Shown: piece by piece, positions 1,908 through 27,063 of the stretch
Layout: each line of letters opens with the position of its first letter
How positions within the stretch are numbered: position 1 is the first letter of the stretch
DNA from: Kineococcus radiotolerans SRS30216 = ATCC BAA-149
GTDB taxonomy: Bacteria > Actinomycetota > Actinomycetes > Actinomycetales > Kineococcaceae
Assembly (NCBI RefSeq): GCF_000017305.1
Contig: NC_009664.2
Span: forward strand, 3,000,001-3,032,000
Length of the DNA stretch: 32,000 nt
Direction: 5' to 3'
Notes under the pieces: generated by a model
The model's database searches: none
What the model was told of the DNA's origin: nothing
The model's input: the letters and a program-made list of their open reading frames with translations, nothing else
Translations under genes and position numbers: made by a program

Positions 1908-3367
1908 AGGACCAGGTACCCGAGGAAGGCCAGCGCGAAGCCGACGAGGCCGATGAGGGTCTCCATGACCGTCCACGTCCGCAGCGTCGTGGGCACGTCC
2001 ATGCCCAGGAAGCGCCCCACGAGCCAGAAGCCGGAGTCGTTGACGTGGCTGAGCGCGGTCGCGCCGGCGGCGATGGCGATGACGATGAACGCGGGGTCGA
2101 GGCTGGACAGGCCCGCGGTCGCCTCGACGGTGGGGGCCATCAGCCCGGCGGTGGTGGTCAGCGCCACCGTCGCCGAGCCCTGCGCCACGCGCAGGCCCAG
2201 GGAGATGATGAACGCGGCCACGATGACGGGCAGGCCGGTCGCGGCCAGGGTGTCGGCCAGGGCGCCGCCGATGCCGCTGGCGCGCAGGACCCCGCCGAAC
2301 ATGCCGCCGGCGCCGGTGATGAGGATGACGGCGCAGACCGGCCCGAGGGAGCTGTTGGCCAGGTCCTCGACCTCGCCGCGCGTCAGCCGGCCCCGGCTGA
2401 GGACGACCATGGTGACGAGCACGGCGATGAGCAGCGCGATGGGCGTCTGCCCCACCAGGCGCAGCACCTGCACCCAGGTCGCCTCGCCGTCGACGGCGCC
2501 GGCGGTGGCCAGCGTGTTCAGGCCCGTGTTGAGGAAGATCAGCACCAGGGGCAGCAGCAGCACGAGGAGGACGGTGCTGAAGCGCGGGGCGGCCGGGCCC
2601 GGGGTGCCCGTCCCGCCCGTCGCGCCCGGGGCGGTGGCGGCGCCGGCGGTGCCGGAGGGCCCGGCCTGCCCGGCCGTGTTCGCGGCCAGGCGCTCGGCCC
2701 ACTCCGCGGGCAGCGGCACGTCGGTGCGGCGCCCGGCCCACAGGCCGAAGAGGTAGCTGGCGGTGAACCACGTGGGGACGGCGAGGACGAGGCCCACGAG
2801 GATGAGGACGCCGATGTCGGCGCCGAGCAGCTCACCGGCCGCGACCGGGCCGGGGTGCGGGGGCACGAAGGCGTGCATGACGGCGAAGGCGCCCGCGGCG
2901 GGCAGGGCGTACGTCAGGACGGAGCCGCCGAAGCGGCGGGCCACCGAGAAGATGATCGGCAGGAAGACCACGAGCCCGGCGTCGAAGAAGATCGGGAACC
3001 CGAAGATCAGCGAGGCGACGCCGAGGGCGAGGGGGGCGCGCTTCTCGCCGAAGCGGGCCACGAGGGTGTCGGCGAGCACCTGCGCGCCGCCGGTGACCTC
3101 CAGCAGGCGCCCGATCATGACGCCGAAGCCGACGAGCAGGGCGACGCTGGCCAGCGTGCTGCCGAAGCCGGCGGTCAGGACGTCGACGACGTCGAGCAGG
3201 CTCCCGTCGGGACCGACGGTGACGACGGCGGTGACGGCGCTGACGAGCACGAGCGCGACGAACGCGTGCAGCTTGAAGCGGATGATCAGCAGCAGCAGCA
3301 GGGCCACGGCGGCGGCGGCGATGAGCAGCAGCGTGCTCGTGCCGTAGGCGGGTGTGACGGTCTCCAT
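1904..3367 (-). CDS. gntP: GntP-family gluconate:H+ symporter (487 aa)
   Basis: Polytopic protein METVTPAYGTSTLLLIAAAAV...FKLHAFVALV...GFGSTL...FGEKRAPLALGVASLIFGFPIFFDAGLVVFLPIIF, characteristic of the GntP permease family. ATG at 3367 is preceded by GGAGGA (reverse complement of 3371-3376). It sits directly upstream of the kinase. Confidence 0.9.
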   Translation of the reverse strand: METVTPAYGTSTLLLIAAAAVALLLLLIIRFKLHAFVALVLVSAVTAVVTVGPDGSLLDVVDVLTAGFGSTLASVALLVGFGVMIGRLLEVTGGAQVLADTLVARFGEKRAPLALGVASLIFGFPIFFDAGLVVFLPIIFSVARRFGGSVLTYALPAAGAFAVMHAFVPPHPGPVAAGELLGADIGVLILVGLVLAVPTWFTASYLFGLWAGRRTDVPLPAEWAERLAANTAGQAGPSGTAGAATAPGATGGTGTPGPAAPRFSTVLLVLLLPLVLIFLNTGLNTLATAGAVDGEATWVQVLRLVGQTPIALLIAVLVTMVVLSRGRLTRGEVEDLANSSLGPVCAVILITGAGGMFGGVLRASGIGGALADTLAATGLPVIVAAFIISLGLRVAQGSATVALTTTAGLMAPTVEATAGLSSLDPAFIVIAIAAGATALSHVNDSGFWLVGRFLGMDVPTTLRTWTVMETLIGLVGFALAFLGYLVL

Positions 3368-3420
3368 CGATCCTCCAGGGACGGCGGTGTCTCGCGGGGG
3401 AGGGTAGCCCACCCGGGCAT

Positions 3421-3460
3421 TACGTCGTACCTTTCCGGTGCGTTCCGGCGATACGTGTAC
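3421..3460. promoter_or_regulatory. Candidate GntR operator boxes in the gntR / gntP-gntK divergent region
   Basis: TACGTCGTA (3421-3429) is a perfect 9-bp palindrome containing GT-N3-AC. The related box TACGTGTAC lies at 3452-3460. Direct repeats TTCCGGTG / TTCCGGCG lie between them (3433-3450). GntR/FadR-family operators usually follow a GT-Nx-AC pattern. Confidence 0.3.
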
Positions 3461-4226
3461 GGAGGAGGCCGGGCAGTATGGGGACGTGCCCGACCCCACC
3501 CCGCAGCCGCGGGCCGACTCCCCCCGCGACGGCGGCCCCTACGACCGCGTCCTGGAGCGCCTCGGCCGGCGCGTCGTGGACGGCGAGCTGCCCCCCGGCA
3601 CCGTGCTCGCCCTGGAGGGCATCGCCGCCGAGCACGGCGTCTCGCGCACCGTGGCCCGCGAGGTCGTCCGCGTCCTGGAGTCCCTCAACCTGCTCGTCAG
3701 CCGCCGCCGCGTCGGGGTCGTCGTCCGCCCGCGGGAGCAGTGGACCGTGCTCGACCCGCGCATCGTGCGCTGGCGCCTGGCCGGCCCCGGGCGCCAGGCC
3801 CAGCTGCTCGCCCTCAGCGAGCTGCGCCTCGCCGTCGAACCGGTCGCCGCCGCCCTCGCCGCCCGCCACGCCACTCCCGAGCAGTGCGGCGCGCTGGTCG
3901 AGGCCGTCGTCGGGATGACCGTCACCGCCCGCACCCCCGACCTGACCGCCTACCTCCAGCACGACGCCCGCTTCCACCGCACCCTGCTGGGGGCCACCGC
4001 CAACGACGCGTTCGCCGCGCTGGCCGGCACCCTCACCGAGGTGCTCGCCGGGCGCACCGAGCACCGGCTGATGCCCGCCCGGCCCGCCGCCCAGGCCATC
4101 GCCTGGCACCGCGAGGTCGCCGAGGCCGTCAGCGTCGGCGACGCCGACGCCGCCGAGGACGCCATGCGCTCGATCGTGCGGGAGGCCACCGCCGCGATGG
4201 CCGCCGCCTCCGCCCCCGGCGCCTGA
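3438..4226 (+). CDS. GntR/FadR-subfamily transcriptional regulator (wHTH + FCD domain)
   Basis: YDRVLERLGRRVVDGELPPGTVLALEGIAAEHGVSRTVAREVVRVLESLNLLVSRRRVGVVV is the GntR winged HTH. The all-helical C-terminus (LRLAVEPVAAALAA...FHRTLL...) is FCD-like. It is divergent from gntP-gntK. The start is ambiguous between GTG 3438 (ORF track) and in-frame GTG 3486. Confidence 0.85.
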   Translation: MRSGDTCTEEAGQYGDVPDPTPQPRADSPRDGGPYDRVLERLGRRVVDGELPPGTVLALEGIAAEHGVSRTVAREVVRVLESLNLLVSRRRVGVVVRPREQWTVLDPRIVRWRLAGPGRQAQLLALSELRLAVEPVAAALAARHATPEQCGALVEAVVGMTVTARTPDLTAYLQHDARFHRTLLGATANDAFAALAGTLTEVLAGRTEHRLMPARPAAQAIAWHREVAEAVSVGDADAAEDAMRSIVREATAAMAAASAPGA

Positions 4227-4231
4227 CCCCG

Positions 4232-4254
4232 CCCCGGGGCGTGGCGCCCCGGGG
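4232..4254 (+). terminator. GC-rich hairpin after gntR (10-bp perfect stem, 3-nt loop)
   Basis: ccccggggcg-tgg-cgccccgggg sits 6 nt after the gntR stop. There is no U-tract, which is common for intrinsic terminators in high-GC actinobacteria. Confidence 0.4.
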
Positions 4255-4270
4255 GAGCGCCCGCACTGGG

Positions 4271-4276
4271 TAGGGT
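4271..4276 (+). promoter_or_regulatory. Candidate -10 hexamer TAGGGT for a leaderless glycan-operon transcript
   Basis: A TAnnnT hexamer lies 8 nt upstream of the GTG at 4285. No Shine-Dalgarno sequence lies between them, whereas most other genes here have GGAGG-like sites or coupled starts. Confidence 0.3.
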
Positions 4277-4284
4277 CGCGGACC

Positions 4285-5466
4285 GTGCCGCCCCTCGTCC
4301 GCATCGCGACGCGGACCTACCCCCCGGACGTGGGGGCCGCCCCCTTCCGCCTGCGCGCCCTGGCCCGCGCCCTCGTCGAGGCCGGCTGCGAGGTCGAGGT
4401 CGTCACCACGAGCGCCACCGCCCCCGAGACCGCCGACCCCGGTGTCGCGACCCGGCGCCGCCCCGTCCTGCGCGACGCCGACGGCGCCGTCCGCGGGTAC
4501 GTGCCCTACCTCTCCTTCGACGTCCCCCTCGCCGCGCGGCTGCTGACCGGCGCCCGCCCCGACGTCGTCGTCCACGAACCCCCGCCGACCACCGGGGTCG
4601 TCACCCGCGTCACCTCCGCGCTGCGCCGGGTCCCCTACGTCTCCTACCTGCCCGACGTCTGGTCGCAGGGCGCCGTCGCCGCCGGGGCGCCCGCCCCGGT
4701 GCTGCGGGCCGTCGCGCTGGCCGAGCAGGCCGCGCTGCGCGGGGCGGCCCGGGTCCTGGCCGTCACCGCGGGGATGGCCGAGGAGGTCGTGCGCGGGGGC
4801 GTGGACCCCGCCCGGGTCCGCGTCGTGGGCAACGGCGTGGACGTCGACGTCTTCCGGCCCGCCGCCGACCCCGCCGCCGACCCCGCCACCGCCGACCCGG
4901 GCCCGCCGGCCGGGGACCTGCGCGTCGTCTACAGCGGGACCATGTCGGAGTGGCAGGGGGCGGAGGTTCTCCTCCGCGGCTTCGCGCGGGTCCTGCGCGA
5001 GCGGCCCGGGGCCCGGCTCACCCTGGTCGGCGGCGGCGTCGACGTCCCCCGGCTGCGGGCGCTGGCCGCCGAGCTCGCCCCGCACGCCATCGACCTGCCC
5101 GGCACCGTCGCCCCCGAGCGGGCCGCGCGGCTGCTGGCCGGCGCCGACCTCGCGCTGGCCTCCCTCGTCCCCGGCACCGGCTACGACCTCATGTCGCCCA
5201 CGAAGATCTACGCGGCCACGGCCTGCGGCACCCCCGTCCTCTTCGCCGGGGTCGGCACCGGCGCTGCGGTCGTGCGCGAGCACGGGCTGGGGGTCGTCGT
5301 GGACCACGACCCCGACGCGGTGGCCGCGGCCCTGCGCGCGGCCACCACCCCGGACCCGGCCACCCGGGCCCGGCTGCGGGAGTGGGCGCTGGCGCACGGC
5401 TCCCTCGCCGCGGCGGCCCGCCGGGCCGCCGACGCGGTGCTCGAAGCGCTGCGGCCCCCGCGGTGA
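4285..5466 (+). CDS. GT4-family (GT-B fold) glycosyltransferase (393 aa)
   Basis: N-terminal Rossmann half (RIATRTYPPDVGAAPFRLRALARALVEAGCEVEVVT). C-terminal half with RVVYSGTMSEWQGAEVLL...LTLVGGG...PTKIYAATACGTPVLFAG, typical of WcaI/GT4 enzymes. GTG start at 4285. Confidence 0.85.
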   Translation: MPPLVRIATRTYPPDVGAAPFRLRALARALVEAGCEVEVVTTSATAPETADPGVATRRRPVLRDADGAVRGYVPYLSFDVPLAARLLTGARPDVVVHEPPPTTGVVTRVTSALRRVPYVSYLPDVWSQGAVAAGAPAPVLRAVALAEQAALRGAARVLAVTAGMAEEVVRGGVDPARVRVVGNGVDVDVFRPAADPAADPATADPGPPAGDLRVVYSGTMSEWQGAEVLLRGFARVLRERPGARLTLVGGGVDVPRLRALAAELAPHAIDLPGTVAPERAARLLAGADLALASLVPGTGYDLMSPTKIYAATACGTPVLFAGVGTGAAVVREHGLGVVVDHDPDAVAAALRAATTPDPATRARLREWALAHGSLAAAARRAADAVLEALRPPR

Positions 5467-7505
5467 TCCCGGCGACTCCCGCGATGGCCCCCGCGGTCCC
5501 CGGGTTCACCGTCGTCACCGGCGGGAGCCCCGCCTCCGACGCGCTCACCCTCGCCCTGGCCGCGGCCTGGGTCCTGCTGCCGGGGGCCCTCGTCCTCGCC
5601 GCCGCCGGGGTCCGCCGGGTCCCCGTGCTGCTCGGGGCCGCGCCGGCCACCTCGATCGGCGTCAGCACCGTCGTCGCGACCCTCACCGGGCTCAGCGGCA
5701 CCCGCTTCACGTGGTGGGGGGTCCTCGCCGCGACCGCCGTCCTCGCCCTGCTCGTCGCCGCGGTCCGCGGGCGGGGACGCGAACCGTTCGAGACCGGCCG
5801 GACCCCGCGCGGCCCGGCGATCGCCGCGGGGGTCCTGGTCCTCGCCGCGGGCGCCACGGCGTGCGAGCTGTTCCGGCGGGGGCTGGGCGCGCTCGCCACC
5901 CCGACGCAGGAGCACGACGCCCTCACCCACACCCTCGTCGCCGCCCGCGTCCTGCGCGCCGGGGACGCCGCGCCGTGGCGCGGCCAGGCCCTCGACGTCG
6001 TCACCGGCGTGCCCGCGCAGTACTACCCCAACGGGCTGCACCAGTGGGCGGCCCTCGTCGCCGGCACCGGCGACGTCAGCGTCGTCAGCGGCCTCAACGC
6101 CACGAGCGTCCTCGTCCTCGCCCTCGTCCAGCCGCTGGGCCTGCTCGCCCTGGCCGCGCGCACCCTGCCGCGGGCGTGGCTGCCCGCCGGCGGGGTCGCC
6201 GCCGTCGCCTCCGCGCTCGCCTACCAGCCGCTGCAGGCCATGCACCACGACTCCGGCGCCCTGCCGAACGCGGCCGCGATCGCCTTCGCCCCCGGCGTCG
6301 TCGCCCTGCTGCTGCCCCCGCCGAGCACCCCCGCCCGCGCCGTCGGGGGCCTCGTCCCCGCCCTGGCCCTGGCCTGCGCCGGAGCGGTCACCGTCCACCC
6401 CAGCGCCGCCCTCACCGTCGGCGGCGGGGTCCTCGGCTGGTTCGTCCTCGACGCCGTCGTCGGCCGGCGCAGCCCCTGGCGCGGGACGTGGTTCGCCGGC
6501 CTCGCCGGGGCCGGCGCGCTGGTCGCCGCCCTCGTGGGGACGGCGCTGGCCCGCGCCGCGGCCACCGGCGGGGGGTCCAGCTCCCGCTTCGTGCGCGACG
6601 TCGACCCGCAGTCCCTGCCCGACGCGCTGCACCGCGTCCTCACCCTGCCCCTGCAGGGCGGGATCGACCCCGCCGCGACCCGCGAGCAGTGGTGGCTGGC
6701 CGTCCCGGTGCTGCTGGGGGTGCTGCTGGCGGGACGCCGGGCCGGCGCGGCGGCGCTGACCTGGCTGGTGTGGACGGCGATCGCCGTGGCCTACCTCGTG
6801 GACCTGCGCGGCCCCGGCCTGGACCTGGTGTGGGACAGCGCCTGGAACTCCTACTACCGCGTCGTCGCCCACGGCAGCCCGTGGGCGTGGCTGCTCGCCG
6901 GGGTCGCGGTGGTCCGGCTCGCCGACCTGCTCACCGGCCCGCTCCCCGCGCGGGTCGCGCCCCGCGGCGCGCCCCTGCTGGCCGGGGCGCTGGGGCTCGC
7001 GCTCCTGGCCGGGGCCGGCTCCGACGTCCTGCCCACCGAGGTCCGCGCCCTGCGCGAGCGCTACGCCGACCCCGCCTACCAGCGCGTCGACGCCGACGAC
7101 GCGGCCGCCGCGCGCTTCCTCGCCGAGCACGTCCGCCCCGGCCAGCGCGTCCTGAACTCCGGCAACGACGGCTCCACCTACGCCTACGTCCTGGAGGGGG
7201 TGCCCGTCCTCGCCACCACCGCCGTCCCCACCGCCCCGCTGCCGGACCTGCGGACCCTGCTCAAGCGGTTCCGCGACCTGCCCACCGACCCCGAGGTCCA
7301 GGACCTCGTGCGCCGCCACGACGTCGCCTGGGTCGTCGTCGACGCCGACGCCCCCGGACTGCCCCTGCGCCCGGCCGACGCCGCGTTCTTCGGCGTCCCC
7401 GGCTACTCCGTGCCGCCGGGCCTGGTGGACCTCGACGCCGTCGCGGGCCTGCGCCGGGTCTTCACCAGCGGCACGGTGGGCGTGTGGCAGGTGACCGGGC
7501 CGTGA
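5463..7505 (+). CDS. Large polytopic membrane protein with a C-terminal extracytoplasmic domain, family not recognised (680 aa)
   Basis: GTG 5463 overlaps the GT4 stop (GTGA); ATG 5484 is an alternative start. About 430 aa of repeated hydrophobic helices are followed by a roughly 200-aa soluble region (RERYADPAYQRVDADDAAAARFLAEHVRPGQRVLNSGNDGSTYAYV...). It is embedded in the glycan operon. Confidence 0.7.
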   Translation: MIPATPAMAPAVPGFTVVTGGSPASDALTLALAAAWVLLPGALVLAAAGVRRVPVLLGAAPATSIGVSTVVATLTGLSGTRFTWWGVLAATAVLALLVAAVRGRGREPFETGRTPRGPAIAAGVLVLAAGATACELFRRGLGALATPTQEHDALTHTLVAARVLRAGDAAPWRGQALDVVTGVPAQYYPNGLHQWAALVAGTGDVSVVSGLNATSVLVLALVQPLGLLALAARTLPRAWLPAGGVAAVASALAYQPLQAMHHDSGALPNAAAIAFAPGVVALLLPPPSTPARAVGGLVPALALACAGAVTVHPSAALTVGGGVLGWFVLDAVVGRRSPWRGTWFAGLAGAGALVAALVGTALARAAATGGGSSSRFVRDVDPQSLPDALHRVLTLPLQGGIDPAATREQWWLAVPVLLGVLLAGRRAGAAALTWLVWTAIAVAYLVDLRGPGLDLVWDSAWNSYYRVVAHGSPWAWLLAGVAVVRLADLLTGPLPARVAPRGAPLLAGALGLALLAGAGSDVLPTEVRALRERYADPAYQRVDADDAAAARFLAEHVRPGQRVLNSGNDGSTYAYVLEGVPVLATTAVPTAPLPDLRTLLKRFRDLPTDPEVQDLVRRHDVAWVVVDADAPGLPLRPADAAFFGVPGYSVPPGLVDLDAVAGLRRVFTSGTVGVWQVTGP

Positions 7506-9403
7506 CCTGGCACCCTGTCCCGGTGCCCGCGAACGCGCCCGACACCCCGGAGGACAAGGTCGTCGCGGTGGTCGTCGCCTACGACCGCCGGGACCTCCTG
7601 CTCGCCGGTCTCGACGCGCTCGCCGCCCAGACCCGCCGCCCCGACCTCGTCGTCGTCGTCGACAACGCCTCCTCCGACGGCTCCCCGCAGGCCGTGCGGC
7701 GGTGGGCGGAGGGGCACGACCTGCCCCTCGACCTCGTCGTCCTGCCCCGCAACACCGGCGGCGCGGGCGGGTTCACCGCCGGCCTGGCCCGCGCGGTGCA
7801 CCGCCACGGCGCCGGCGCGGTCTGGCTCATGGACGACGACACCGTGCCCCGCCCCGACGCGCTCGCGGCCTCGCTGACGGCGATGCGCCGCACCGGTTCC
7901 GCCCTCGTCGCCAGCCGGGTCGTGTGGACCGACGGGCGCGACCACCCGATGAACACCCCCCGCGAGCGCCCCGGGGTCACCGCCGCCGAGCGCGCCGCGG
8001 CCGCGGCGGCGGGCTGCCTGCCCGTGCGCTCGGCGAGCTTCGTGGCGCTGCTGCTGGACGCCCGCGCCGTGCGCGAGGACGGGCTGCCCGAGGCCGCGTT
8101 CTTCCTCTGGAACGACGACTTCGAGTACACGACCCGCCTGCTGCGCCACCGCCGCGGGGTCTCCTGCCCGGACAGCGTCGTCGAGCACCGCACGAGGGTC
8201 TTCGGCGGCGCCGACGCCGACCCGGGGGAGCGCTTCGCGCTGGAGGTCCGCAACAAGCTGTGGACCTTCACCCGCTCCCGCCCCCTCGGCGCGCGCGACA
8301 CCGTCCTCTACGGCGGGGCGACGCTGCGCCGCTGGGTCCGGACGGTGGCCCGCTCCCGCCGCCGCGACGTGCTGGTGCGGGGGCTCGCGACCGGTCTGCG
8401 CCAGGGCGCGGAGCGGCCCGAGCCGACCGCCGCCGTCCTGCGCGACCTGCCCGAGGTCGCCGCCGACGTCCGCGCGGTGGAGTCCGCGGCCGGGCGCGAC
8501 CTCGGCGCCGCCGCGCGGGTGGAGCCCACCGCCCCCCGCGAGGGGCTGCCGGCGTTCTCGGTGCTGCTGCCGGTGTGGGCCCGCGACGACGCCGCGCAGC
8601 TGCGGCGCGCCGTCGCCAGCGTCACCACCGAGCAGGAGCTGCGCCCCGACGAGGTCGTCGTCGTCCGCGACGGTCCCGTGCCGCCGGCCCTGCAGGAGGT
8701 CCTCGACGAGCTCTCGCGCGGGCCGGGGACCCGGGTGCACCCGCTGCCGCGCAACGTGGGGCTGGCCCGCGCCCTGGAGGCCGGGCTCGCCGTCTGCACC
8801 CACGACGTGGTGGCCCGGATGGACGCCGACGACGTCAGCCTGCCCACCCGCTTCGCGCGCCAGCTGCCCGTCATCGCCGCCGGCGCCGACCTCGTCGGGG
8901 CCGGGCTGCTGGAGATCGGCGCCGACGAGGACGACGTCGTGGGCCGGCGCGTCCCGCCCACCGGGGCCGCCGAGATCGCCCGCTACGCCCGCTTCCACGA
9001 CCCCTTCAACCACCCCACGGTCGTGTACCGCCGCTCCGCGGTCGCCGCGGCGGGCGGGTACCGCGACCTGGAGCTGATGGAGGACTACTGGCTCTTCGCC
9101 CGGATGATCGCCGCCGGCGCCCGCGTGGAGAACCTGCCCGAGCCGCTGGTGAAGTACCGCGTCGGCGCGAGCCCGGACGCGGGGTCCTACGCCCGCCGCG
9201 GGGGCCTGCGGCTGTTCCGCTCCGAGCTCACCCTCCAGCGCCACCTGCGCCGCGAGGGGTTCACCACCCCCGTCCAGGCCGTGCGCAACGTCGTCGTCCG
9301 CGGCGGGTACCGCTTCGTGCCGACCCGGGTCCGCACCGCCGCCTACCGCGCCCTCATCGCCACGACGAACGAGACGACGCACGAGCAAGGAGGTGGACGG
9401 TGA
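7502..9403 (+). CDS. Two-domain GT2 glycosyltransferase: GlfT1-like galactofuranosyltransferase fused to a second GT-A/GT2 module (633 aa)
   Basis: Domain 1: VVAVVVAYDRRDLL..QTRRPDLVVVVDNASSDGS..RNTGGAGGFTAGL..VWLMDDDT, which resembles M. tuberculosis GlfT1 (Rv3782). Domain 2: FSVLLPVWARDD...VVVVRDGP...ARMDADDVS...MEDYWLFARM, a classic GT2 DxD/ED pattern. GTG 7502 overlaps the upstream stop (GTGA). Confidence 0.85.
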   Translation: MTWHPVPVPANAPDTPEDKVVAVVVAYDRRDLLLAGLDALAAQTRRPDLVVVVDNASSDGSPQAVRRWAEGHDLPLDLVVLPRNTGGAGGFTAGLARAVHRHGAGAVWLMDDDTVPRPDALAASLTAMRRTGSALVASRVVWTDGRDHPMNTPRERPGVTAAERAAAAAAGCLPVRSASFVALLLDARAVREDGLPEAAFFLWNDDFEYTTRLLRHRRGVSCPDSVVEHRTRVFGGADADPGERFALEVRNKLWTFTRSRPLGARDTVLYGGATLRRWVRTVARSRRRDVLVRGLATGLRQGAERPEPTAAVLRDLPEVAADVRAVESAAGRDLGAAARVEPTAPREGLPAFSVLLPVWARDDAAQLRRAVASVTTEQELRPDEVVVVRDGPVPPALQEVLDELSRGPGTRVHPLPRNVGLARALEAGLAVCTHDVVARMDADDVSLPTRFARQLPVIAAGADLVGAGLLEIGADEDDVVGRRVPPTGAAEIARYARFHDPFNHPTVVYRRSAVAAAGGYRDLELMEDYWLFARMIAAGARVENLPEPLVKYRVGASPDAGSYARRGGLRLFRSELTLQRHLRREGFTTPVQAVRNVVVRGGYRFVPTRVRTAAYRALIATTNETTHEQGGGR

Positions 9404-10587
9404 CCGCCGTCACCGACACCCAGCCCCCCGCCGACACCGCCGTCGCGAAGCGGCTGCCCGAGGTCCGCTCCATCACCGGCCTGCGGATCGTCGCGGCCGT
9501 CTGGGTCCTGCTCTTCCACTGGAAGTTCACCCCGCTGCCCGACTGGGGCGGGGTGCGCGCCTTCCTCACCCCCGTCACCGACTCCGGGCACCTCGGCGTC
9601 GACCTCTTCTACGTGATCTCCGGCTTCGTGATCACCCTGACCTACCTGGACACGATGGGGCGCCGGCCCCGGCTGCGCGGCTGGCTGGACTTCTGGTGGG
9701 CCCGGGTCTGCCGGGTCTGGCCCGCCTACGCCGTCGTCGTCGTGCTCTTCGGCTGCTGGCTGCTGTGGCGGCGCAGCATCGACCCCGCCTTCTACGCCTA
9801 CCAGGGCGTGCAGCCGGACCTGGGGCCGTGGGCCTGGGTCGAGCAGCTGCTGCTGGTGCAGCTGTGGCACCGCCCCGACTTCGACGGCGCCAGCTTCGTG
9901 GGCGCGACCTGGTCGGTGTCGGCGGAGATGGCCGCCTACGTCGCCTTCCCCGTGCTGGCCCTGGTGCTGTTCCGGCTGCGGCGGCTGCCCTGGTGGCTGC
10001 TGGTCGCCGGGGCGGTGGCGCTGATGGTGCCCGCGGCGCTGCGCAGCTACCAGACCGGGGTCATCTACTGGGACTACAGCTGGCTGGAGCGGATCGGCAC
10101 CTGCTTCGGCGCCGGGGCGCTGGTGTGCCTGGCGGTGCGGCGGTTGCAGGCGGGCGCGGTGTCCTCCGAGCGCGCCGCGCGGTGGGCCCCGACCCTCGCG
10201 TGGGTCCTGGTGCTGGAGTGCGTGCTCGTCGTGGGCTGGGCCGCGGGACGCCCCTACGACCGTTTCGCCGTGGTCGCGGTCCTCTTCCCGCTGCTCGTGG
10301 GGGCGCTCGCCCTGACCGAGCGCGGGCCCTCGGCGTTCCTGTCCCGCCCGGCGGTCGTGCTGGGCGGGCGGATCTCCTACAGCGTCTACCTCGTCCACGT
10401 GCCGGTGTACGAGGTCTTCTGGACCTTCCAGCGGGAGGTCCCGCAGATCGCCCCCGGCGGGCCGTGGACGGGCTTCCTCGTGCCGAACCTGCCGGTCGTG
10501 GCCATCGGTCTCGGGTGGGTCCTGTGGAGGTTCGTCGAGGAGCCCGCCCGCCGCCGCCTGCGCGCGCTGGGACGCGCGCGCCGGTGA
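9400..10587 (+). CDS. Acyltransferase_3 family membrane O-acyltransferase (395 aa)
   Basis: SITGLRIVAAVWVLLFHW...GHLGVDLFYVISGFVIT...R(V)WPAY...ISYSVYLVHVPV are the hallmark motifs of the OafA/WecH-type acyltransferase 3 family. AGGAGG at 9389-9394. GTG 9400 overlaps the upstream stop. Confidence 0.85.
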   Translation: MTAVTDTQPPADTAVAKRLPEVRSITGLRIVAAVWVLLFHWKFTPLPDWGGVRAFLTPVTDSGHLGVDLFYVISGFVITLTYLDTMGRRPRLRGWLDFWWARVCRVWPAYAVVVVLFGCWLLWRRSIDPAFYAYQGVQPDLGPWAWVEQLLLVQLWHRPDFDGASFVGATWSVSAEMAAYVAFPVLALVLFRLRRLPWWLLVAGAVALMVPAALRSYQTGVIYWDYSWLERIGTCFGAGALVCLAVRRLQAGAVSSERAARWAPTLAWVLVLECVLVVGWAAGRPYDRFAVVAVLFPLLVGALALTERGPSAFLSRPAVVLGGRISYSVYLVHVPVYEVFWTFQREVPQIAPGGPWTGFLVPNLPVVAIGLGWVLWRFVEEPARRRLRALGRARR

Positions 10588-10662
10588 GCGCGGGGTGACG
10601 GGGCCGGGGCCGCGGGGCGGCTACGCTGACGCCACCATGCCCGAGCACAGTCACGCCCATGA

Positions 10663-13895
<3,233 letters not shown>

Positions 13896-13897
13896 CG

Positions 13898-14788
13898 GTG
13901 CCGGCGGCCACGACCGCCCCGGCACCGCTGCTCGCCCCGGGCCACGGCTCGGGGCTGCTGGACGTGGTCCGCTACCGCTACCTGCTGAAGCTGCTGGTCC
14001 GCAAGGAGATGCGGGTCCGCTACCGCGGGTCCGTCATGGGCCTGCTGTGGTCCTACGTGAAGCCGGGCGTGCAGTTCGCCGTCTTCTACTTCGCGATGGG
14101 GGAGTTCCTCAAGCTCAACGAGAGCGTCCCCAACTTCGCGGTGTACCTGTTCTCCGGCATCGTGGTCATCAACTTCTACACCGAGGCGTTCGGCAACGCG
14201 ACGCGCTCGGTGGTGGGCAACGCGCCGCTGATCAAGAAGATCTTCCTGCCCCGCGAGCTGTTCACGGTGTCCTCGGCGTGGGTGGCCTCGATCCACTTCC
14301 TGCCGCAGCTGGTGGTGCTGCTCGTGGCGTGCCTCGTCACCGGCTGGCGGCCGCTGCCGCAGCAGCTCGCCGGGGCGCTGCTCGGGTTCGCCATCGTCGC
14401 GGTCCTCGCCGTCGGGCTCGGGCTGCTCTTCGGCGCGATCAACGTGCTCTACCGCGACTTCGAGAACATCGTCGACCTGCTGCTGATGATCGTGACCTGG
14501 ACCTCGCCGGTCCTCTACGACTGGCGGAAGGTCGCCGACGCCGTCGGCGGCCCGGACTCCTGGTTCATGACCCTCTACCAGCTGAACCCGGTGACGGCCG
14601 CCGTCGAGCTGTTCCACTGGGCGTTCTGGTACCCCACCGGCGACGTCCGCACCGCCGAGGTCCCCGTCGTCCTGCCGCCGCACCTGCTGTGGTCGGGCCT
14701 GTGGGGCCTCCTCATCGCCCTCGTGCTCCTCGCGCTCGGACAGCTCGTGTTCCGCCGCATCGAGGGCCGTTTCGCGCAGGAGCTGTGA
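13898..14788 (+). CDS. wzm: ABC-2 type polysaccharide export permease (296 aa)
   Basis: RYLLKLLVRKEMRVRYRGSVMGLLWSYVKP...FSGIVVINFYTEAF...PLIKKIFLPRELF is the Wzm/RfbD ABC-2 signature. GTG lies 2 nt after the glfT2 stop. Confidence 0.9.
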   Translation: MPAATTAPAPLLAPGHGSGLLDVVRYRYLLKLLVRKEMRVRYRGSVMGLLWSYVKPGVQFAVFYFAMGEFLKLNESVPNFAVYLFSGIVVINFYTEAFGNATRSVVGNAPLIKKIFLPRELFTVSSAWVASIHFLPQLVVLLVACLVTGWRPLPQQLAGALLGFAIVAVLAVGLGLLFGAINVLYRDFENIVDLLLMIVTWTSPVLYDWRKVADAVGGPDSWFMTLYQLNPVTAAVELFHWAFWYPTGDVRTAEVPVVLPPHLLWSGLWGLLIALVLLALGQLVFRRIEGRFAQEL

Positions 14789-15582
14789 TGAGCGTGACGA
14801 GTTCCCCCGGCACCCCGGCCTCCGACACCCCCCGCCCGGGCACCCCCGCCGCCGGGGCGCCCACCGCGATCGAGGTCCACGGCCTGGTCAAGGACTTCAC
14901 CCTGCGCCACAACCGCTCCCTCAAGGAGCTGGTCATGGCGAAGATCCGCAAGAAGCCGATCTCGGACAGCTTCCGGGCCCTGCACGGGGTCGACCTGGAG
15001 GTCCGCCAGGGCGAGGCCCTCGCCCTGCTCGGCTTCAACGGCTCGGGCAAGTCGACGCTGCTGAAGCTGATCTCCGGGGTCATGCGCCCCGACGAGGGCA
15101 CGATCGGCGTCCGCGGCCGGATCGCCGGGCTCATCGAGGTCGGGGCCGGGTTCCACCCCGACCTGACCGGGCGCGAGAACGTCTACCTCAACGGCGCCAT
15201 CCTCGGGATGGACGAGGCGACGATCAACGCCCGCTTCGACGACATCGTCGCCTTCAGCGAGATCGAGCGCTTCATCGACACCGAGGTGAAGTTCTACTCC
15301 TCGGGGATGTTCCTGCGGCTGGCCTTCGCCGTCGCGGTGCACACCGACCCCGAGGTCTTCCTCATCGACGAGATCCTCTCCGTCGGCGACGAGCCGTTCC
15401 AGAAGAAGTGCCTGGCCCGCATCGAGGAGCTGCGCGCCGAGGGCCGCACGCTGGTCATCGTCAGCCACGACCTCGACATGGTCGCCGGCCTCTGCACCCG
15501 CGGGATCCTCCTGGAGCAGGGCCGCGTCGTCGCCGACGACACCGCCGAGCGGGTCGTGGCCCGGATGCGCGGTCAGGCGTGA
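14788..15582 (+). CDS. wzt: Polysaccharide ABC exporter ATP-binding protein, short form without a C-terminal carbohydrate-binding domain (264 aa)
   Basis: Walker A GFNGSGKSTLLK, GFHPDLTGRENVYLNG, signature YSSGMFLRLAFAVA, Walker B VFLIDEILSVGD and H-loop VSHD. The ATG shares one nt with the wzm stop (TGATG). Confidence 0.9.
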   Translation: MSVTSSPGTPASDTPRPGTPAAGAPTAIEVHGLVKDFTLRHNRSLKELVMAKIRKKPISDSFRALHGVDLEVRQGEALALLGFNGSGKSTLLKLISGVMRPDEGTIGVRGRIAGLIEVGAGFHPDLTGRENVYLNGAILGMDEATINARFDDIVAFSEIERFIDTEVKFYSSGMFLRLAFAVAVHTDPEVFLIDEILSVGDEPFQKKCLARIEELRAEGRTLVIVSHDLDMVAGLCTRGILLEQGRVVADDTAERVVARMRGQA

Positions 15583-17141
15583 CCGCCACGGCGTCGCGCA
15601 CCCGGCGCCCCCCGGCCCCCGGCCCGGCCGTCCCGCGCTCGCGGGCCCTGCTGCCCGCCCTGGGGGTGGGGGCCCTCGCCGCGGGGACCTTCGTCCTGGT
15701 GCACCGGGCGCTGGTCGACGACGCCTACATCACCCTCGCCTACGCGCGGAACCTCGCCCTGCACGGGACGTGGGGCCTGCTCTCCGACGTGGAGTCCAAC
15801 ACCGCCACCTCCCCGCTGTGGGTGCTGCTGCTGGCCGCCGTGACCGCGGTGGTGCGCCGGCCGGTGGTGGCGCTGGGGGTCCTGCACGTCCTCATGGCCG
15901 TCGGCCTCACCCTGTCGCTGACCTCCGCGGCCCGGCGCACCGGGCTGCCCGCGTGGGTGGGTCCCGCCGCGGCCGTGGCGGTGGGGGTCAACCCGCTGCT
16001 GCTGAGCTCCGTCGGCCTGGAGTCGGGCTTCCTCGTCCTGCTGCTGTCGCTGCTGCTGCTGGCCGCCGTCCGCGGCGCCGCGCTGCCGTACGGGCTGGCC
16101 GCGGGCGCGGTCGTGCTGACCCGGATGGACGCCGCCGTCGTCGTCGCCGTCCTCACCCTGCTCACCCCGGCCGTGCTGCGGCGGCTGCACGTGGCCGTCC
16201 CCGCCGCGCTGCTCGTCGTGGTGCCGTGGATGACCTGGAGCTGGTTCCACCTGGGCTCCGCCGTCCCCGACACCGTCGTCATCAAGACGCTGCAGGAGTC
16301 GTGGGAGCAGTACGACGTCCGCAACGGCATGCAGCTCTACGTCGAGGTCTACGGGCTGACCGCGGTCCTGGCGTTCCTGCCGGTGGTGCTCGGCGGGCTG
16401 GGGTGGTTCGTCCTCGCCGCCCTGGGCTGGACCTCGCGCCGCTCGGCCACCGCCCCGCCCAGCGGGCTGCGGGTGTGGCCGTGGCTGGCGGTGGGGGTCG
16501 CCGGCGTGGCGCACTACCTCGCGCTGAGCGTCCTCGGCGTCCCCCCGTACCACTGGTACTACGCCGTCCTCGTGGCGCTGTCGACGGTGGTGGGGGTCGC
16601 CGCCCTCGGCGCGCTCTTCCCCCGGGTCGAGCTGCGCCCCGTCGGCCTCGGGGCGTCGGCGGCCGCGGTCGTCCTCCTCGTGGCCAGCGCCGGGGTCGAC
16701 CTGCGCGCGGGGCTGCCCTGGTCGATCGCGCCCATCCAGACCAACTGGGCCCACCCCGCGCGCTACACCGAGATCGCCCGCGACGTGCAGGCCGTCCTGG
16801 AGCAGCGCGGCGGCCCCCAGCACGTCACCTCGCCCGGCGAGGTCGGCCACCTCGCCTACGTCTGCGACTGCGTCGTGGACTACTTCGCCGACCCGGCCCG
16901 CGTGCAGCCGATGATCGACCAGGTCGAGGCCGAGTCCTCGCCGCTGGGGCGGCGGCTGCTGGAGTGGAACTTCACCCACCGCGACGCGGACGCCGCGCCG
17001 GTCCCGGTGTCGGGGGAGCTCTTCCGCTACGACCGCGGCACCCAGCCGCCCGCGGCCCGGGGTCTGCCGACGTGGCCGATCACCACGACCTGGGACATGG
17101 TGCCCAGCGACATCGTCCTGCAACCGGTGGGTGGCGCGTGA
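15579..17141 (+). CDS. Polytopic membrane protein, candidate GT-C glycosyltransferase (520 aa)
   Basis: After the first TM helix there is a VDDAYITLAYARN motif, a DD-aromatic-I first-loop motif like those of GT-C/Emb-type enzymes. It is followed by about 11 hydrophobic segments and a C-terminal soluble region of roughly 110 aa. GTG 15579 overlaps the wzt stop. Confidence 0.65.
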   Translation: MTATASRTRRPPAPGPAVPRSRALLPALGVGALAAGTFVLVHRALVDDAYITLAYARNLALHGTWGLLSDVESNTATSPLWVLLLAAVTAVVRRPVVALGVLHVLMAVGLTLSLTSAARRTGLPAWVGPAAAVAVGVNPLLLSSVGLESGFLVLLLSLLLLAAVRGAALPYGLAAGAVVLTRMDAAVVVAVLTLLTPAVLRRLHVAVPAALLVVVPWMTWSWFHLGSAVPDTVVIKTLQESWEQYDVRNGMQLYVEVYGLTAVLAFLPVVLGGLGWFVLAALGWTSRRSATAPPSGLRVWPWLAVGVAGVAHYLALSVLGVPPYHWYYAVLVALSTVVGVAALGALFPRVELRPVGLGASAAAVVLLVASAGVDLRAGLPWSIAPIQTNWAHPARYTEIARDVQAVLEQRGGPQHVTSPGEVGHLAYVCDCVVDYFADPARVQPMIDQVEAESSPLGRRLLEWNFTHRDADAAPVPVSGELFRYDRGTQPPAARGLPTWPITTTWDMVPSDIVLQPVGGA

Positions 17142-17668
17142 GCCTGTTCGAGAAGATCGCCGCGGTGGACCTCCGGGTGCTGCGGGGGGTGCAGGGCGGG
17201 GTCCGGTTCCCCGGGGCGGTGCCCGTCGCGACGGGCCTCTCCCACGCCGGGGAGCACGCCGCGGCGTGGATCGGGACCGGGGTCGCGGGCTTCGTCCTGG
17301 ACCGCCGCCGCCGGCGGGAGTGGGCGGTCGCCACGGGCGCCGTCGTCGCCGCGCACGGCGCCTCCGTCGTCCTCAAGCGCGTCGCGCGCCGGCACCGCCC
17401 GCTGGACCACCACGTGCAGGTGCGGGTGGGCACCCCCAGCCGATGGAGCATGCCCAGCTCGCACGCCACGTCGACGACGGCCGCCGCGATCGCCTTCGCG
17501 CCGCTGCTGCCCGCCCCCGCCCGGCCGCTGGTCGTCGCGCTGCCGGGGGCCATGGCGCTGTCCCGGCTCGTGCTGGGCGTCCACTACCCGACCGACGTCA
17601 CCGCGGGCGCGCTGCTCGGCGCGGCGACGGCCGTCGCGGCGCGCCGCGTCGCGGGGAGGACCTCGTGA
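17138..17668 (+). CDS. PAP2-family phosphatase, Rv3807c-like decaprenylphosphoryl-5-phosphoribose phosphatase (176 aa)
   Basis: The three PAP2 motifs are present: KRVARRHRP, PSSHA and SRLVLGVHYPTDV. Its position immediately upstream of the UbiA-type gene matches M. tuberculosis Rv3807c-Rv3806c. Confidence 0.8.
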   Translation: MSLFEKIAAVDLRVLRGVQGGVRFPGAVPVATGLSHAGEHAAAWIGTGVAGFVLDRRRRREWAVATGAVVAAHGASVVLKRVARRHRPLDHHVQVRVGTPSRWSMPSSHATSTTAAAIAFAPLLPAPARPLVVALPGAMALSRLVLGVHYPTDVTAGALLGAATAVAARRVAGRTS

Positions 17669-18567
17669 GCACCCGGGAGCAGACGGTGTCGACCCCCTCC
17701 ACCCGGTCGCCCGCCTGGCTGCGCGCCATGCGCCCGCGGCAGTGGGTGAAGAACGTCCTCGTCCTCGCGCCGGTGTTCCCCGCCGGCCAGCAGGTGGGCC
17801 TCGACACCCTCACCGGGGTCGGGGTCGCCTTCGTGCTGTTCTGCGTGCTGTCGAGCTCGATCTACCTGATCAACGACGCCAAGGACGTCGAGGCCGACCG
17901 CGCGCACCCGCGCAAGCGGTTCCGGCCCATCGCGGCGGGGGAGCTGCCGGTCCGCACCGCCGTCGTCCTCGCCGTGGTCCTGGCCGCGGTCGCGCTGGGC
18001 GCGGGCACGCTCTGGCAGCCGATGCTGGGGGTGGTGCTCGGGGTCTACTTCGTCATCCAGCTCGCCTACTGCTTCGGCCTCAAGCACGAACCCGTCCTCG
18101 AGCTGGCCTGCGTCGCCTCCGGGTTCCTGCTGCGCATGCTCGCCGGCGGCACCGCCGGCGACATCCCCCTCTCGGGCTGGTTCCTGCTGACCACGGCGTT
18201 CGGCTCGCTGTTCATGGCCGCCGGCAAGCGCTACGGGGAGGCCCGCCGCGGGGAGCTCACCGGGGAGCCCGTGCGCCGGGTGGTGCAGCGGTACACCCCG
18301 ACCTACCTGCGCTTCGTGTGGACCCTCGCCGCGACGGTCGTCGTCACCACGTACGCGTTGTGGGCGATCGAGGTCCTCGTCGCCCAGACCGGCACGAGCC
18401 TGGCGACCCTGACCATCGTCCCCTTCGTCCTCGCCGTGCTGCGCTACGCGGTGGACGTGGACAGCGGGAACGCCGAGGAGCCCGAGGAGATTGCCCTGCA
18501 CGACCGGGTGCTGCTCGGCCTGGCGGGCCTGTGGTGCGCCTCCCTGCTGCTGGCGGTGTGGCTGTGA
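17665..18567 (+). CDS. ubiA: UbiA-family decaprenyl-phosphate 5-phosphoribosyltransferase (DPPR synthase), Rv3806c-like (300 aa)
   Basis: LRAMRPRQWVKNVLVLA, YLINDAKDVEADRAHPRKRFRPIAAG, LAYCFGLKHEPVLE, FGSLFMAAGKRYGE, YLRFVWTL and LRYAVDVDSGNAEEPEEIALHDRVL closely parallel Rv3806c. Confidence 0.88.
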   Translation: MSTREQTVSTPSTRSPAWLRAMRPRQWVKNVLVLAPVFPAGQQVGLDTLTGVGVAFVLFCVLSSSIYLINDAKDVEADRAHPRKRFRPIAAGELPVRTAVVLAVVLAAVALGAGTLWQPMLGVVLGVYFVIQLAYCFGLKHEPVLELACVASGFLLRMLAGGTAGDIPLSGWFLLTTAFGSLFMAAGKRYGEARRGELTGEPVRRVVQRYTPTYLRFVWTLAATVVVTTYALWAIEVLVAQTGTSLATLTIVPFVLAVLRYAVDVDSGNAEEPEEIALHDRVLLGLAGLWCASLLLAVWL

Positions 18568-19007
18568 GCGCCCCGGTGCGGACCCTGCTGGCCTCCGAGC
18601 GCGCGGGGGAGGTCGTGCGGTTCCTCGTCTCCGGCGGGATCGCCTACCTCGCCGACCTGGTGGTCTTCAACGTCCTGCTCCTCGCCGGGGTCGGCTCGGT
18701 CTGGTCCAAGGTCGTCTCCAGCGTCATCGCGATCTTCATCGCGTTCCTGGGCAGCCGGTACTACACCTGGCGCGACCGCCGCAGCGAGCACCCGGGCCGC
18801 GAGTACGCCATGTTCTTCCTGTTCTCCGCGATCGCCGCCGGGCTGCAGCTGCTGTGCCTGGCGATCACGCACTACGGGTTCGGCTGGACCTCGGCCCTGG
18901 CCGACAACCTCTCCGGCAACGTCGTCGGGATGGCCATCGCCATGGTGTTCCGCTTCCTGACCTTCCGGACGTTCGTCTTCCCGGACCGCTCCGCGACCAG
19001 TGCGTGA
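18564..19007 (+). CDS. gtrA: GtrA-family small membrane protein, Rv3789-like (147 aa)
   Basis: VVRFLVSGGIAYLADLVVFNVL...FLGSRYYTWRD...VFRFLTFRTFVF has four TM segments and the typical GtrA pattern. GTG overlaps the ubiA stop. Confidence 0.85.
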   Translation: MSAPVRTLLASERAGEVVRFLVSGGIAYLADLVVFNVLLLAGVGSVWSKVVSSVIAIFIAFLGSRYYTWRDRRSEHPGREYAMFFLFSAIAAGLQLLCLAITHYGFGWTSALADNLSGNVVGMAIAMVFRFLTFRTFVFPDRSATSA

Positions 19008-20127
19008 CCCCAGGACCCTGATCCCCGTCCTGCTGGGGATCGTGCTCGCGGTCGTCGTCGTCCGCAGCGGTGTCGGGCAGGCGTCCTGGGAGGTCGGGTA
19101 CGACCTCTCCGTCTACCGCGACGGCGCCCGGGACCTGCTGGCCGGCCGTGACCTCTACGGGCGCGAGACCTACCGCGGGCACTGGTTCGTGTACCCGCCG
19201 TTCGCGGCGATCCTCTTCGTGCCCCTGCTCCTGCTGCCCGCGGCGGTGGACCTCGTCCTGTGGGACGCGGTGCTGGTCGCGGTGGCGACGTGGGGGTGCT
19301 GGCGGGTCCTGCGCTCCGTCGCCGGCCCCGGGTGGTGGCTGGGGACGGGGATCGCGTTCGTCCTGCTCAGCGACCCGTTCCGCGAGGCGCTGGTGCTGGG
19401 GCAGATCAGCCCCCTCGTCGTGCTGGGGCTCGTGCTCGGCTGCCTCTACGGCGGGCGCGGGGGGGCCCTGCTCGCCGCGCTGTCGGGGGCGGTGAAGGTG
19501 ACCCCGGCCCTGGTGATCGCCTCGCTGCTGAACCGGCGGGCCCGGGGGTGGTTCGCGCTGCCCGTGGTCGTCGTGGGGGCGGTGGTGACGCTGCTCGGGG
19601 CCCTGGTGGCCCCGCGCTCGGCGGTGTCCTACTTCGGGGGCCTGCTCTGGGACCCCGACCGCGTCGCGGAGCCGCGGACGACGACGAACAACTCGCTGGC
19701 GGGGGCGTTCGCGCACGCGGGGACGTCGTCCTCGCTGGCCTCGGCGCTGGGGGTGGTGTGCGCGGTCCCGCTGCTGGTCCTCGTCGTCGTCGTCGCCCGG
19801 CGCTGCGACTGGCTGGACCGCTCCGCGCGGCTGCGCTTCGGGCTGCTCGTCTCCGTCGTGACCTGCCTGGTGTCGCCGGTGACGTGGTCGCACCACGCGC
19901 TGGCCGCCCCGATCGCGGTGGTGGTGCTGCTGGCCGGGCGGCGCCACGGCCCCCTGCTGGTGCTGGCGGGTCTCCCGTGGCTGCTGCCGGTGCTGCACTG
20001 GGGGCCGGTGCTCGCCCAGACCCGGCCGCTGTCGCTGCTGGTGCTCGTCGTCCTGCTCAGCGCGCGCCCGTCGCGCACCGCGCGGGCGCCGCGCTCCGAG
20101 CTGGACGGGGCCGCCCGGGAGGTCTGA
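19000..20127 (+). CDS. DUF2029 / GT87-type polyprenyl-phosphate-sugar dependent membrane glycosyltransferase (375 aa)
   Basis: DLSVYRDGARDLLAGRDLYGRE...WFVYPPFAAILFVPL and KVTPALV are characteristic of the GT87 family (PimE/AftC/Mpt-like). GTG 19000 overlaps the gtrA end by 8 nt. Confidence 0.8.
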   Translation: MRDPRTLIPVLLGIVLAVVVVRSGVGQASWEVGYDLSVYRDGARDLLAGRDLYGRETYRGHWFVYPPFAAILFVPLLLLPAAVDLVLWDAVLVAVATWGCWRVLRSVAGPGWWLGTGIAFVLLSDPFREALVLGQISPLVVLGLVLGCLYGGRGGALLAALSGAVKVTPALVIASLLNRRARGWFALPVVVVGAVVTLLGALVAPRSAVSYFGGLLWDPDRVAEPRTTTNNSLAGAFAHAGTSSSLASALGVVCAVPLLVLVVVVARRCDWLDRSARLRFGLLVSVVTCLVSPVTWSHHALAAPIAVVVLLAGRRHGPLLVLAGLPWLLPVLHWGPVLAQTRPLSLLVLVVLLSARPSRTARAPRSELDGAAREV

Positions 20128-20140
20128 GCCGCGGGCGGCC

Positions 20141-20177
20141 GGCGGCACCGGGCGGGGTCACCCGCGCCGGTGCCGCC
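20141..20177. terminator. Bidirectional GC hairpin between convergent operons
   Basis: ggcggcaccgggcggg-gtca-cccgcgccggtgccgcc forms a roughly 16-bp stem with one bulge and a 4-nt loop. It sits in the 61-bp gap between the stops at 20127 (+) and 20189 (-). Confidence 0.5.
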
Positions 20178-20188
20178 GCGCCACCGGC

Positions 20189-22183: not shown

Positions 22184-22208
22184 GTCGTCCTCCGGGTGCT
22201 TCCGCGGA

Positions 22209-23432: not shown

Positions 23433-23433
23433 G

Positions 23434-27049: not shown

Positions 27050-27063
27050 GAGAGCAGTCCTCC

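Follow-up and report, generated by a model that had tools for sequence, protein, structure and literature searches.

The window analysed here is a stretch of 32,000 nt from Kineococcus radiotolerans SRS30216 (contig NC_009664.2, positions 3,000,001 to 3,032,000), and positions 4285-20127 of this window hold an unbroken run of 13 genes (g01-g13), all on the + strand and separated by 12 junctions. Judging from homology, predicted structure and gene context, the block is probably the core cell-wall arabinogalactan (AG) operon of K. radiotolerans. The genus Kineococcus is defined by meso-diaminopimelic acid (meso-DAP) and a wall arabinogalactan (Yokota, 1993). An earlier interpretation of the same DNA, made from the letters without database searches and referred to below as the sequence-only reading, had guessed at an arabinogalactan-like glycan in a non-mycolate actinomycete; the organism is a Kineococcus, and the guess was right and matches this 30-year-old chemotaxonomy. 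To our knowledge, based on the genus descriptions, Kineococcus has no mycolic acids. A literature search that combined Kineococcus with GlfT2, DprE1 and galactofuranosyltransferase, and that took in the genome paper, found no description of the cluster; product names of the GlfT2, GT87 and GT39-like type are already present in the public annotation.

The GC content of the window is about 75% and open reading frames (ORFs) are plentiful in all six frames, and therefore codon-position GC was used to pick the real genes. In every frame proposed for g01-g13 the GC at third codon positions (GC3) is 0.98-0.99 and there are zero internal stops, and the sliding codon-position GC analysis revealed a frame change exactly at each proposed junction of the block. 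The GenBank numbering is concordant with 13 genes, ABS05343 to ABS05355 corresponding to g13 to g01. GlfT2 and four further proteins match those of K. radiotolerans SRS30216 exactly, and another assembly of this species shares 99.4% identity with the window. Overall GC steps from 78-81% over g01-g03 (4000-9000) to 69-73% over glf-wzt (10000-15000), a step that is due to the amino-acid composition of the conserved enzymes and not to a foreign origin; horizontal transfer, at which the step hints, was ruled out by the uniform GC3.

Overlap or abutment of stop and start was found at 11 of the 12 junctions. Seven of them are 4-nt GTGA overlaps (5463-5466, 7502-7505, 9400-9403, 15579-15582, 17138-17141, 17665-17668 and 18564-18567), g05/g06 share an ATGA (11886-11889), g07/g08 a TGATG at 14786-14790 (stop at 14786-88, ATG at 14788-90), g12/g13 overlap by 8 nt (19000-19007), and g06/g07 are spaced by 2 nt (13895/13898). 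The remaining junction is a non-coding gap of 114 nt before glf (10588-10701). The sequence-only reading had every junction coordinate and the gap correct, as well as the common + strand of all genes from 4285 to 20127; it miscounted them as 12 genes with 11 junctions, ten of these overlapping or abutting, while its own list of junctions contains 12 and hence implies 13 genes. By sequence criteria (one strand, with stop/start overlap or abutment kept in relatives) the block qualifies as a translationally coupled operon, and the overlapping stop/start pairs would allow coupled translation of all 13 products from a single mRNA.

A profile search with the g09 family returned 80 genomic loci, which served to compare the block among species. 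At least 10 other Kineococcus species have the genes in this order, and the -4/-1/+2/-8 junctions recur in at least 10 of them despite differing flanking bases; because the same junctions recur while the flanking bases differ, the overlaps are not due to chance. Since both order and overlaps are conserved across Kineococcus, we take the tight packing of the block to be under selection. Overlaps as such are ordinary in this genome, as an unrelated DUF1800/DUF1501 gene pair downstream also overlaps by 4 nt. The block varies in some respects: three species (loci L007, L011 and L012) have a 4-nt overlap in place of the gap before glf, in two others (L014 and L015) g04 is absent from the operon and the g02/g03 junction measures 88-111 nt, and two further species carry an additional g09 paralogue, extra genes following g09 in L008 and L018. 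Because it is missing in L014 and L015, g04 is regarded as an accessory tailoring gene.

Among the galactan genes, g05 (10702-11889, 395 aa) was assigned as Glf, the UDP-galactopyranose mutase (UGM). It scores 316.7 bits with the equivalog model TIGR00031, above the cut-off of 303.75, contains the Pfam NAD_binding_8 and GLF domains and matches the Mycobacterium tuberculosis UGM 1v0j with 604 bits. The adjacent g06 (11886-13895, 669 aa) has the full three-part GlfT2 architecture (Glft2_N, GT2 and GlfT2_domain3 in Pfam) and aligns with M. tuberculosis GlfT2 4fix over residues 76-656 with 483 bits, which makes it, on solid sequence grounds, a predicted GlfT2-type galactofuranosyltransferase acting as galactofuranan polymerase. 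Both assignments had been proposed in the sequence-only reading and held up. Downstream of them, g07 (13898-14788, 296 aa, PF01061) and g08 (14788-15582, 264 aa, PF00005) encode a Wzm-type ABC-2 permease and a Wzt-type ATP-binding cassette (ABC) ATPase. At the 5′ end of the block, g01 (4285-5466, 393 aa) is a glycosyltransferase of the GT4 family (GT-B fold) with Pfam matches to Glyco_trans_4_4, Glyco_transf_4 and Glyco_trans_1_4 and with no NCBIfam equivalog, g03 (7502-9403, 633 aa) is a fusion with two GT2 domains at residues 20-231 and 353-555, and g04 (9400-10587, 395 aa) is a membrane O-acyltransferase of the Acyl_transf_3 family (PF01757, 98.9 bits). In mycobacteria, AG is succinylated by SucT/Rv1565c (PMC10503756).

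The genes for the arabinose donor, decaprenyl-phosphate arabinose (DPA), are represented in the block by g10, g11 and g12. The UbiA-family protein g11 (17665-18567, 300 aa) scores 441.9 bits with NF008978, for which the cut-off is 207, and 296 bits with M. tuberculosis Rv3806c (8j8j); g11 is thus solidly predicted as the decaprenyl-phosphate phosphoribosyltransferase UbiA, or decaprenyl-phosphate 5-phosphoribose (DPPR) synthase, in agreement with what had been read from the letters. For the PAP2 phosphatase g10 (17138-17668, 176 aa, PF01569) and the small GtrA-family membrane protein g12 (18564-19007, 147 aa, PF04138 with 84.8 bits), also named beforehand, the matches are at Pfam family level. 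The PAP2 gene lies directly upstream of ubiA in both Kineococcus and Pseudonocardiaceae, and the same order holds in M. tuberculosis (Rv3807c-Rv3806c), g10 being the positional equivalent of Rv3807c. A further enzyme needed for DPA synthesis, the DPX 2-reductase DprE2, is encoded outside the block at 30210-30971 on the - strand, 10 kb from it; it scores 371.6 bits with NF053786 (cut-off 250), and K. radiotolerans has a called gene for precisely this 253-aa product. Adjacent to dprE2 in this organism lies a Mem_trans gene on the other strand and not dprE1.

Three polytopic membrane proteins of the block, g02, g09 and g13, were said in the sequence-only reading to have no obvious mycobacterial counterpart. 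This did not hold, as each of them has an analogue at the level of fold or family, AftA-like for g02, ArnT/AftB-like for g09 and GT87 for g13. The sole Pfam match of g02 (5463-7505, 680 aa) is to PF20176 (DUF6541), with 374 bits. Its AlphaFold2 (AF2) model has a predicted local distance difference test (pLDDT) value of 82 and a predicted template modelling (pTM) score of 0.87, and the top Foldseek match of this model is M. tuberculosis AftA 8if8 (E 1e-6) with template modelling (TM) scores of 0.48-0.54, i.e. at the level of fold class, followed by the oligosaccharyltransferase (OST), DPY19, ArnT and AftD; g02 is thus a predicted glycosyltransferase of the GT-C class with an AftA-like fold. In turn, g13 (19000-20127, 375 aa) belongs to the GT87 family of GT-C glycosyltransferases, with 131.8 bits to PF09594 against a gathering score of 25. 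GT87 contains both PimE and AftC.

The third protein, g09 (15579-17141, 520 aa), has zero Pfam or NCBIfam matches. An AF2 model built on 18 homologues (pLDDT 87, pTM 0.88) matched ArnT 5f15 with an E value of 7e-6 and AftB 9dlf with 1.5e-5 at a TM-score of 0.51, again a likeness of fold class; the Foldseek probability is 1.00 for ArnT, AftB, ALG9/12, PglB and OST, and AftD and Emb also follow. Residues D47-D48 are invariant in the 18 sequences and come directly after the first transmembrane helix (TM1). In GT-C_A enzymes the first juxtamembrane helix that follows TM1 carries the catalytic Asp at its start, and the corresponding AftB residue is D62, part of a DD motif (PMC12041299). Having both the fold and the DD motif, g09 is predicted to be a GT-C_A glycosyltransferase. 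Genomic context supports an arabinan role for it: Amycolatopsis, Saccharopolyspora and related metagenome-assembled genomes (MAGs) have g09 homologues directly after glf-(glfT2)-PAP2-ubiA, with dprE2 alongside, and 35 of the 64 non-Kineococcus g09 loci contain an AG or DPA gene at a distance of at most 10 kb. The position after ubiA is the one that aftB holds in M. tuberculosis. The family also occurs in tandem arrays of two to three paralogues in Amycolatopsis (L035, L039, L045 and L053). In a few mycobacteria it is found beside a GlfT2-like gene (34%) and a Wzt-like gene (L066, Mycolicibacterium stellerae, 7382-17690), which hints at a second galactofuranose (Galf) polymer cluster in those mycobacteria.

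Taking fold and context together, we propose tentatively, and with somewhat more doubt than confidence, that DUF6541 (g02) and the g09 family are two new DPA-dependent arabinofuranosyltransferase families, which together with the GT87 enzyme would form a minimal arabinan set without Emb or AftD, with g09 in the place of AftB in Kineococcus and Pseudonocardiaceae. No Emb-type (EmbA/B/C) or AftD-type family was matched among the window proteins scanned with Pfam and NCBIfam. Profile comparisons among g02, g09, g13 and a further GT-C-like protein of 523 aa encoded outside the block revealed no sequence-level relation; because the profiles are unrelated, the four proteins are not recent paralogues, and this origin was ruled out.

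In the pathway that these assignments would compose, Glf (g05) would supply UDP-Galf at the cytoplasmic face, where a polyprenyl-PP primer begun by an enzyme encoded outside the block would be extended by g03, and perhaps by g01, and GlfT2 (g06) would polymerise the galactofuranan. The lipid-linked galactan would then be exported by Wzm/Wzt (g07/g08). In parallel, UbiA (g11) would form decaprenyl-P-5-phosphoribose, PAP2 (g10) would dephosphorylate it, and DprE1 (unlocated) and DprE2 would carry out the epimerisation to decaprenyl-P-arabinose, which GtrA (g12) may help to reorient across the membrane to the outer face. There the unrelated GT-C enzymes g02/DUF6541, g09 and g13/GT87 would add pentofuranose from the lipid donor, and g04 would O-acylate the polymer.

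At its 3′ end the operon is delimited by a convergent gene and by a GC-rich hairpin between the two (20125-20192), which is likely a bidirectional terminator. The hairpin has a minimum free energy of -63.2 kcal/mol (z = -7.69), and none of 200 shuffled sequences folded equally well; it was overlooked by a simple terminator scan because it has no T-run. Upstream, the 58-nt stretch before g01 folds no better than shuffled sequences (z = -0.65), and the same is true of the CCCCGGGGCG/CGCCCCGGGG inverted repeat at 4234-4256, after gntR. The motif TAGGGT lies 8 nt upstream of the g01 GTG start (4271-4284), and it could be the -10 box for a leaderless or near-leaderless mRNA. A literature search for Kineococcus transcriptome data returned irrelevant papers only, and a whole-window Rfam scan gave zero matches. 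Public Logan assemblies of this strain break repeatedly at 4215, 8495, 8773 and 20475; the contig ends were rejected as transcript boundaries because the run types are unknown; 20475 is inside LGFP repeat DNA, and the other three are in sequence of about 80% GC.

Several results weigh against the assignment of the block as a complete AG operon, and we gather them here. The scan for a sigma-70-like promoter consensus inside or beside the block found none, and the intrinsic terminator scan gave a single match (12889-12904) within chance expectation, both scans having little meaning in an actinomycete of 75% GC; an internal promoter could have room in the 114-nt gap before glf. The label GlfT1 (Rv3782), which the sequence-only reading had attached to g03, has no orthologue-level support: membership was taken as at least 330 bits with NF050113 in a single-domain protein of about 300 aa, and g03, a 633-aa protein with two GT2 domains, reaches 83 bits, over model positions 1-191 and in its N-terminal domain only. 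This N-terminal half is 60-65% identical to a stand-alone GT2 of about 310 aa in Actinomadura, Spirillospora, Georgenia, Quadrisphaera and others. Two g03-family loci were inspected (L089 8001-9802 and L090 8001-9068), and both lack glf within 8 kb: Quadrisphaera has one gene for each half, the two being neighbours, and in Actinomadura madurae the homologue is accompanied by an ABC-2 exporter and a PMT_2 GT-C. We conclude from these comparisons that g03 is a gene fusion from a widespread wall-glycopolymer GT2 family and that the GlfT1 label is unproven. The Wzm/Wzt labels (Rv3783/Rv3781) stood as far as an ABC polysaccharide exporter is concerned and failed for a galactan-exporter orthologue, with g07 at 66 bits of the 380 required by the galactan Wzm model NF050109 and g08 at 167 of the 400 of the galactan Wzt model NF050108. 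The TagH-like model gives 182 bits with g08, its highest score, and g07 matches Aquifex Wzm, TarG and 9qfx alike with 35-41 bits, Aquifex Wzm being the highest. The entry 9qfx, deposited as 'Probable O-antigen/lipopolysaccharide transport integral membrane protein ABC transporter', is in our understanding the mycobacterial Wzm. By Pfam the g07/g08 pair belongs to the generic ABC-2 polysaccharide exporter family.

Gaps in the pathway and in the GT-C comparisons belong to the same side of the balance. DprE1 was found neither in the window nor in the 10 kb that lie past DprE2, and none of the window proteins scanned matched a WecA-type or LCP-type domain, so that initiation and peptidoglycan attachment are unaccounted for within the window. 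The claim that galactan and DPA-derived arabinose come from one compact operon is overstated, since the operon is not self-sufficient: DprE2 is 10 kb off and DprE1 and the WecA-type and LCP-type functions were not found in the DNA searched. Compared with the PDB sequences, both as a single sequence and as a profile, g02 gave no real match, AftA included, and the 18-sequence profile of g09 found no chain at E <= 1 except a chance match, AftB being among the entries of the PDB copy searched with Foldseek; homology to AftB (GT89) for g09 and to AftA (GT85) for g02 thus fails at the sequence level. The TM-scores near 0.5 of the two models point to a fold class and not to a donor specificity. The GT87 family includes mannosyltransferases too, and the one NCBIfam match of g13 is of the PimE type, with 88 bits of the 413 required, so that the equivalog fails; PimE 9dm5 itself is matched with 34 bits, and UniRef names the protein alpha-1,2-mannosyltransferase.

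We consider it unlikely that at least one of g02, g09 and g13 uses another donor (polyprenyl-P-mannose, -ribose or -hexosamine), the glycan then being decorated differently. The PimE-type match and the UniRef name of g13 would fit with this, as would the absence of a sequence link to AftA, AftB or Emb, and the structural matches of g09 include ALG9 and ALG12, whose structures were determined with Dol-P-Man, and the aminoarabinose transferase ArnT, none of which is an arabinofuranose (Araf) transferase. Against it, the three genes belong to the coupled unit that also contains PAP2, ubiA and gtrA for the DPA precursor, g09 homologues adjoin ubiA and dprE2 in many Pseudonocardiaceae, and the window is without a polyprenyl-P-mannose synthase. 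A still less probable reading is that the cluster makes another Galf glycopolymer (a capsular or secreted galactofuranan, or a lipoglycan) and not a peptidoglycan-linked arabinogalactan. The lack of a matched LCP ligase and WecA-type initiator in the window, an exporter as close to TagH/TarG and to O-antigen Wzm as to the galactan exporter, and the g03 N-terminal family in two inspected clusters without glf would be compatible with such a product, whereas the wall arabinogalactan of the genus, the location here of the only Glf/GlfT2/UbiA set of the window, the closeness of these three enzymes to the M. tuberculosis AG enzymes and the LGFP-repeat wall hydrolases with an Rv3811-like amidase that flank the operon all argue for AG.

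A further alternative concerns the transcription unit and not its product, namely that the genes of the block, although on one strand, are transcribed in at least two units, e.g. g01-g04 and glf-g13. To this we give a low probability, comparable to that of the other donor. It draws on the non-coding gap before glf, on the absence of g04 and the wider g02/g03 junction in two species and on the extra genes after g09 in L008 and L018; against it, the gap carries no terminator-like structure, folding no better than shuffled sequences (z = +1.78), is a 4-nt overlap in three species, and the other 11 junctions have no promoter space outside coding sequence. The core AG operon remains our preferred reading of the block.

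The mycobacterial AG genes form one region, rv3779-rv3809c, of about 30 genes in both orientations (PMC7168186). The view that the Kineococcus block gathers genes that are dispersed in mycobacteria is therefore not tenable, and what sets it apart is its single orientation together with its tight packing. Like the M. tuberculosis region, the Kineococcus DNA has Glf, GlfT2, PAP2, UbiA, GtrA, DprE2, an ABC-2 exporter, an Rv3811-like LGFP amidase nearby and GT-C enzymes for the periplasmic steps. Unlike it, Kineococcus has 13 genes on one strand with overlapping junctions, GT-C families that are DUF6541, an unnamed one and GT87, with no Emb/AftD-type match in the window, a fused double GT2 in the GlfT1 position, a Wzm/Wzt pair that is only distantly related, and a separate dprE2 with no dprE1 found nearby. 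The clusters of Pseudonocardiaceae (Amycolatopsis, Saccharopolyspora and related MAGs) share the g09-family GT-C at 39-46% identity, the PAP2-ubiA pair, Glf and GlfT2-like genes and, in Amycolatopsis, a DUF6541 homologue beside glf. They differ in having genes on both strands (dprE2 opposite), with Wzm/Wzt, GtrA and GT87 outside the same run, and in the place of g09, which is directly after ubiA and often in tandem paralogues there and after wzt in Kineococcus.

With AftB (GT89) and AftA (GT85) the GT-C proteins share the predicted GT-C fold, AftB being the second-best PDB match of g09 and AftA the best of g02, and the DD motif of g09 is at the position of the catalytic D62 of AftB. However, g09 is smaller than AftB (520 aa versus about 600-620), no sequence homology to AftA or AftB appears even by profile, and the TM-scores of about 0.5 are near those with ArnT and OST. 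As in Wzm/Wzt-dependent O-antigen and wall teichoic acid pathways, the polymer would be finished on a cytoplasmic polyprenyl carrier and exported by an ABC-2 pair; unlike in those pathways, the Kineococcus chain is expected to gain glycosylation from a lipid-linked pentose outside the membrane.

The genes flanking the block were also considered. Three LGFP-repeat wall proteins identified with Pfam (20189-25494, - strand) converge on the operon and lie outside it: one has SpoIID/LytB and five LGFP repeats, another four LGFP repeats (with a VldE domain in the precomputed Pfam hits), and another Rv3811_N, amidase_2 and five LGFP repeats. Their genes are kept beside the operon across Kineococcus species, and Rv3811 adjoins glf in M. 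tuberculosis. They are probably wall-glycan-anchored hydrolases that bind or remodel the same wall layer, the link being one of association only, and they may be anchored to the glycan product of the operon. Between the LGFP genes and the GT-C/DprE2 pair lies the DUF1501/DUF1800 pair with its 4-nt overlap (25775-28536, - strand); in Quadrisphaera (L089, 3839-6603) such a pair also adjoins GT2 genes, a recurring wall-glycan association. The 523-aa GT-C-like membrane protein (28631-30202, - strand) is directly downstream of dprE2 with a 7-nt spacing. It has a weak PMT_2 match, scores 94 of 900 bits with the MT1671-type mannosyltransferase model and is named 'glycosyltransferase family 39 protein' by NCBI; in M. 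tuberculosis, aftA follows dprE2. Upstream of the operon, a gluconate-type utilisation group (333-4226) comprises - strand genes for an FGGY kinase and a GntP permease and a + strand gene for a GntR/FCD regulator, the last of which ends 58 nt before g01; this group probably has no relation to the operon.

In tuberculosis, the synthesis of arabinogalactan is one of the main pathways targeted by drugs, and its genetics come almost wholly from Mycobacterium and Corynebacterium. The cluster is in itself consistent with the known wall chemistry of the genus, and the Kineococcus operon would show a distant mycolate-free actinomycete packing the same core chemistry, from Glf and GlfT2 to an ABC exporter and the DPA-precursor enzymes, into one 16-kb unit. 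DUF6541 and the Pfam-less g09 family are candidate arabinosyltransferases; if they prove to be so, the repertoire of arabinan enzymes would be wider, and K. radiotolerans would become a compact, non-pathogenic model for arabinogalactan assembly.

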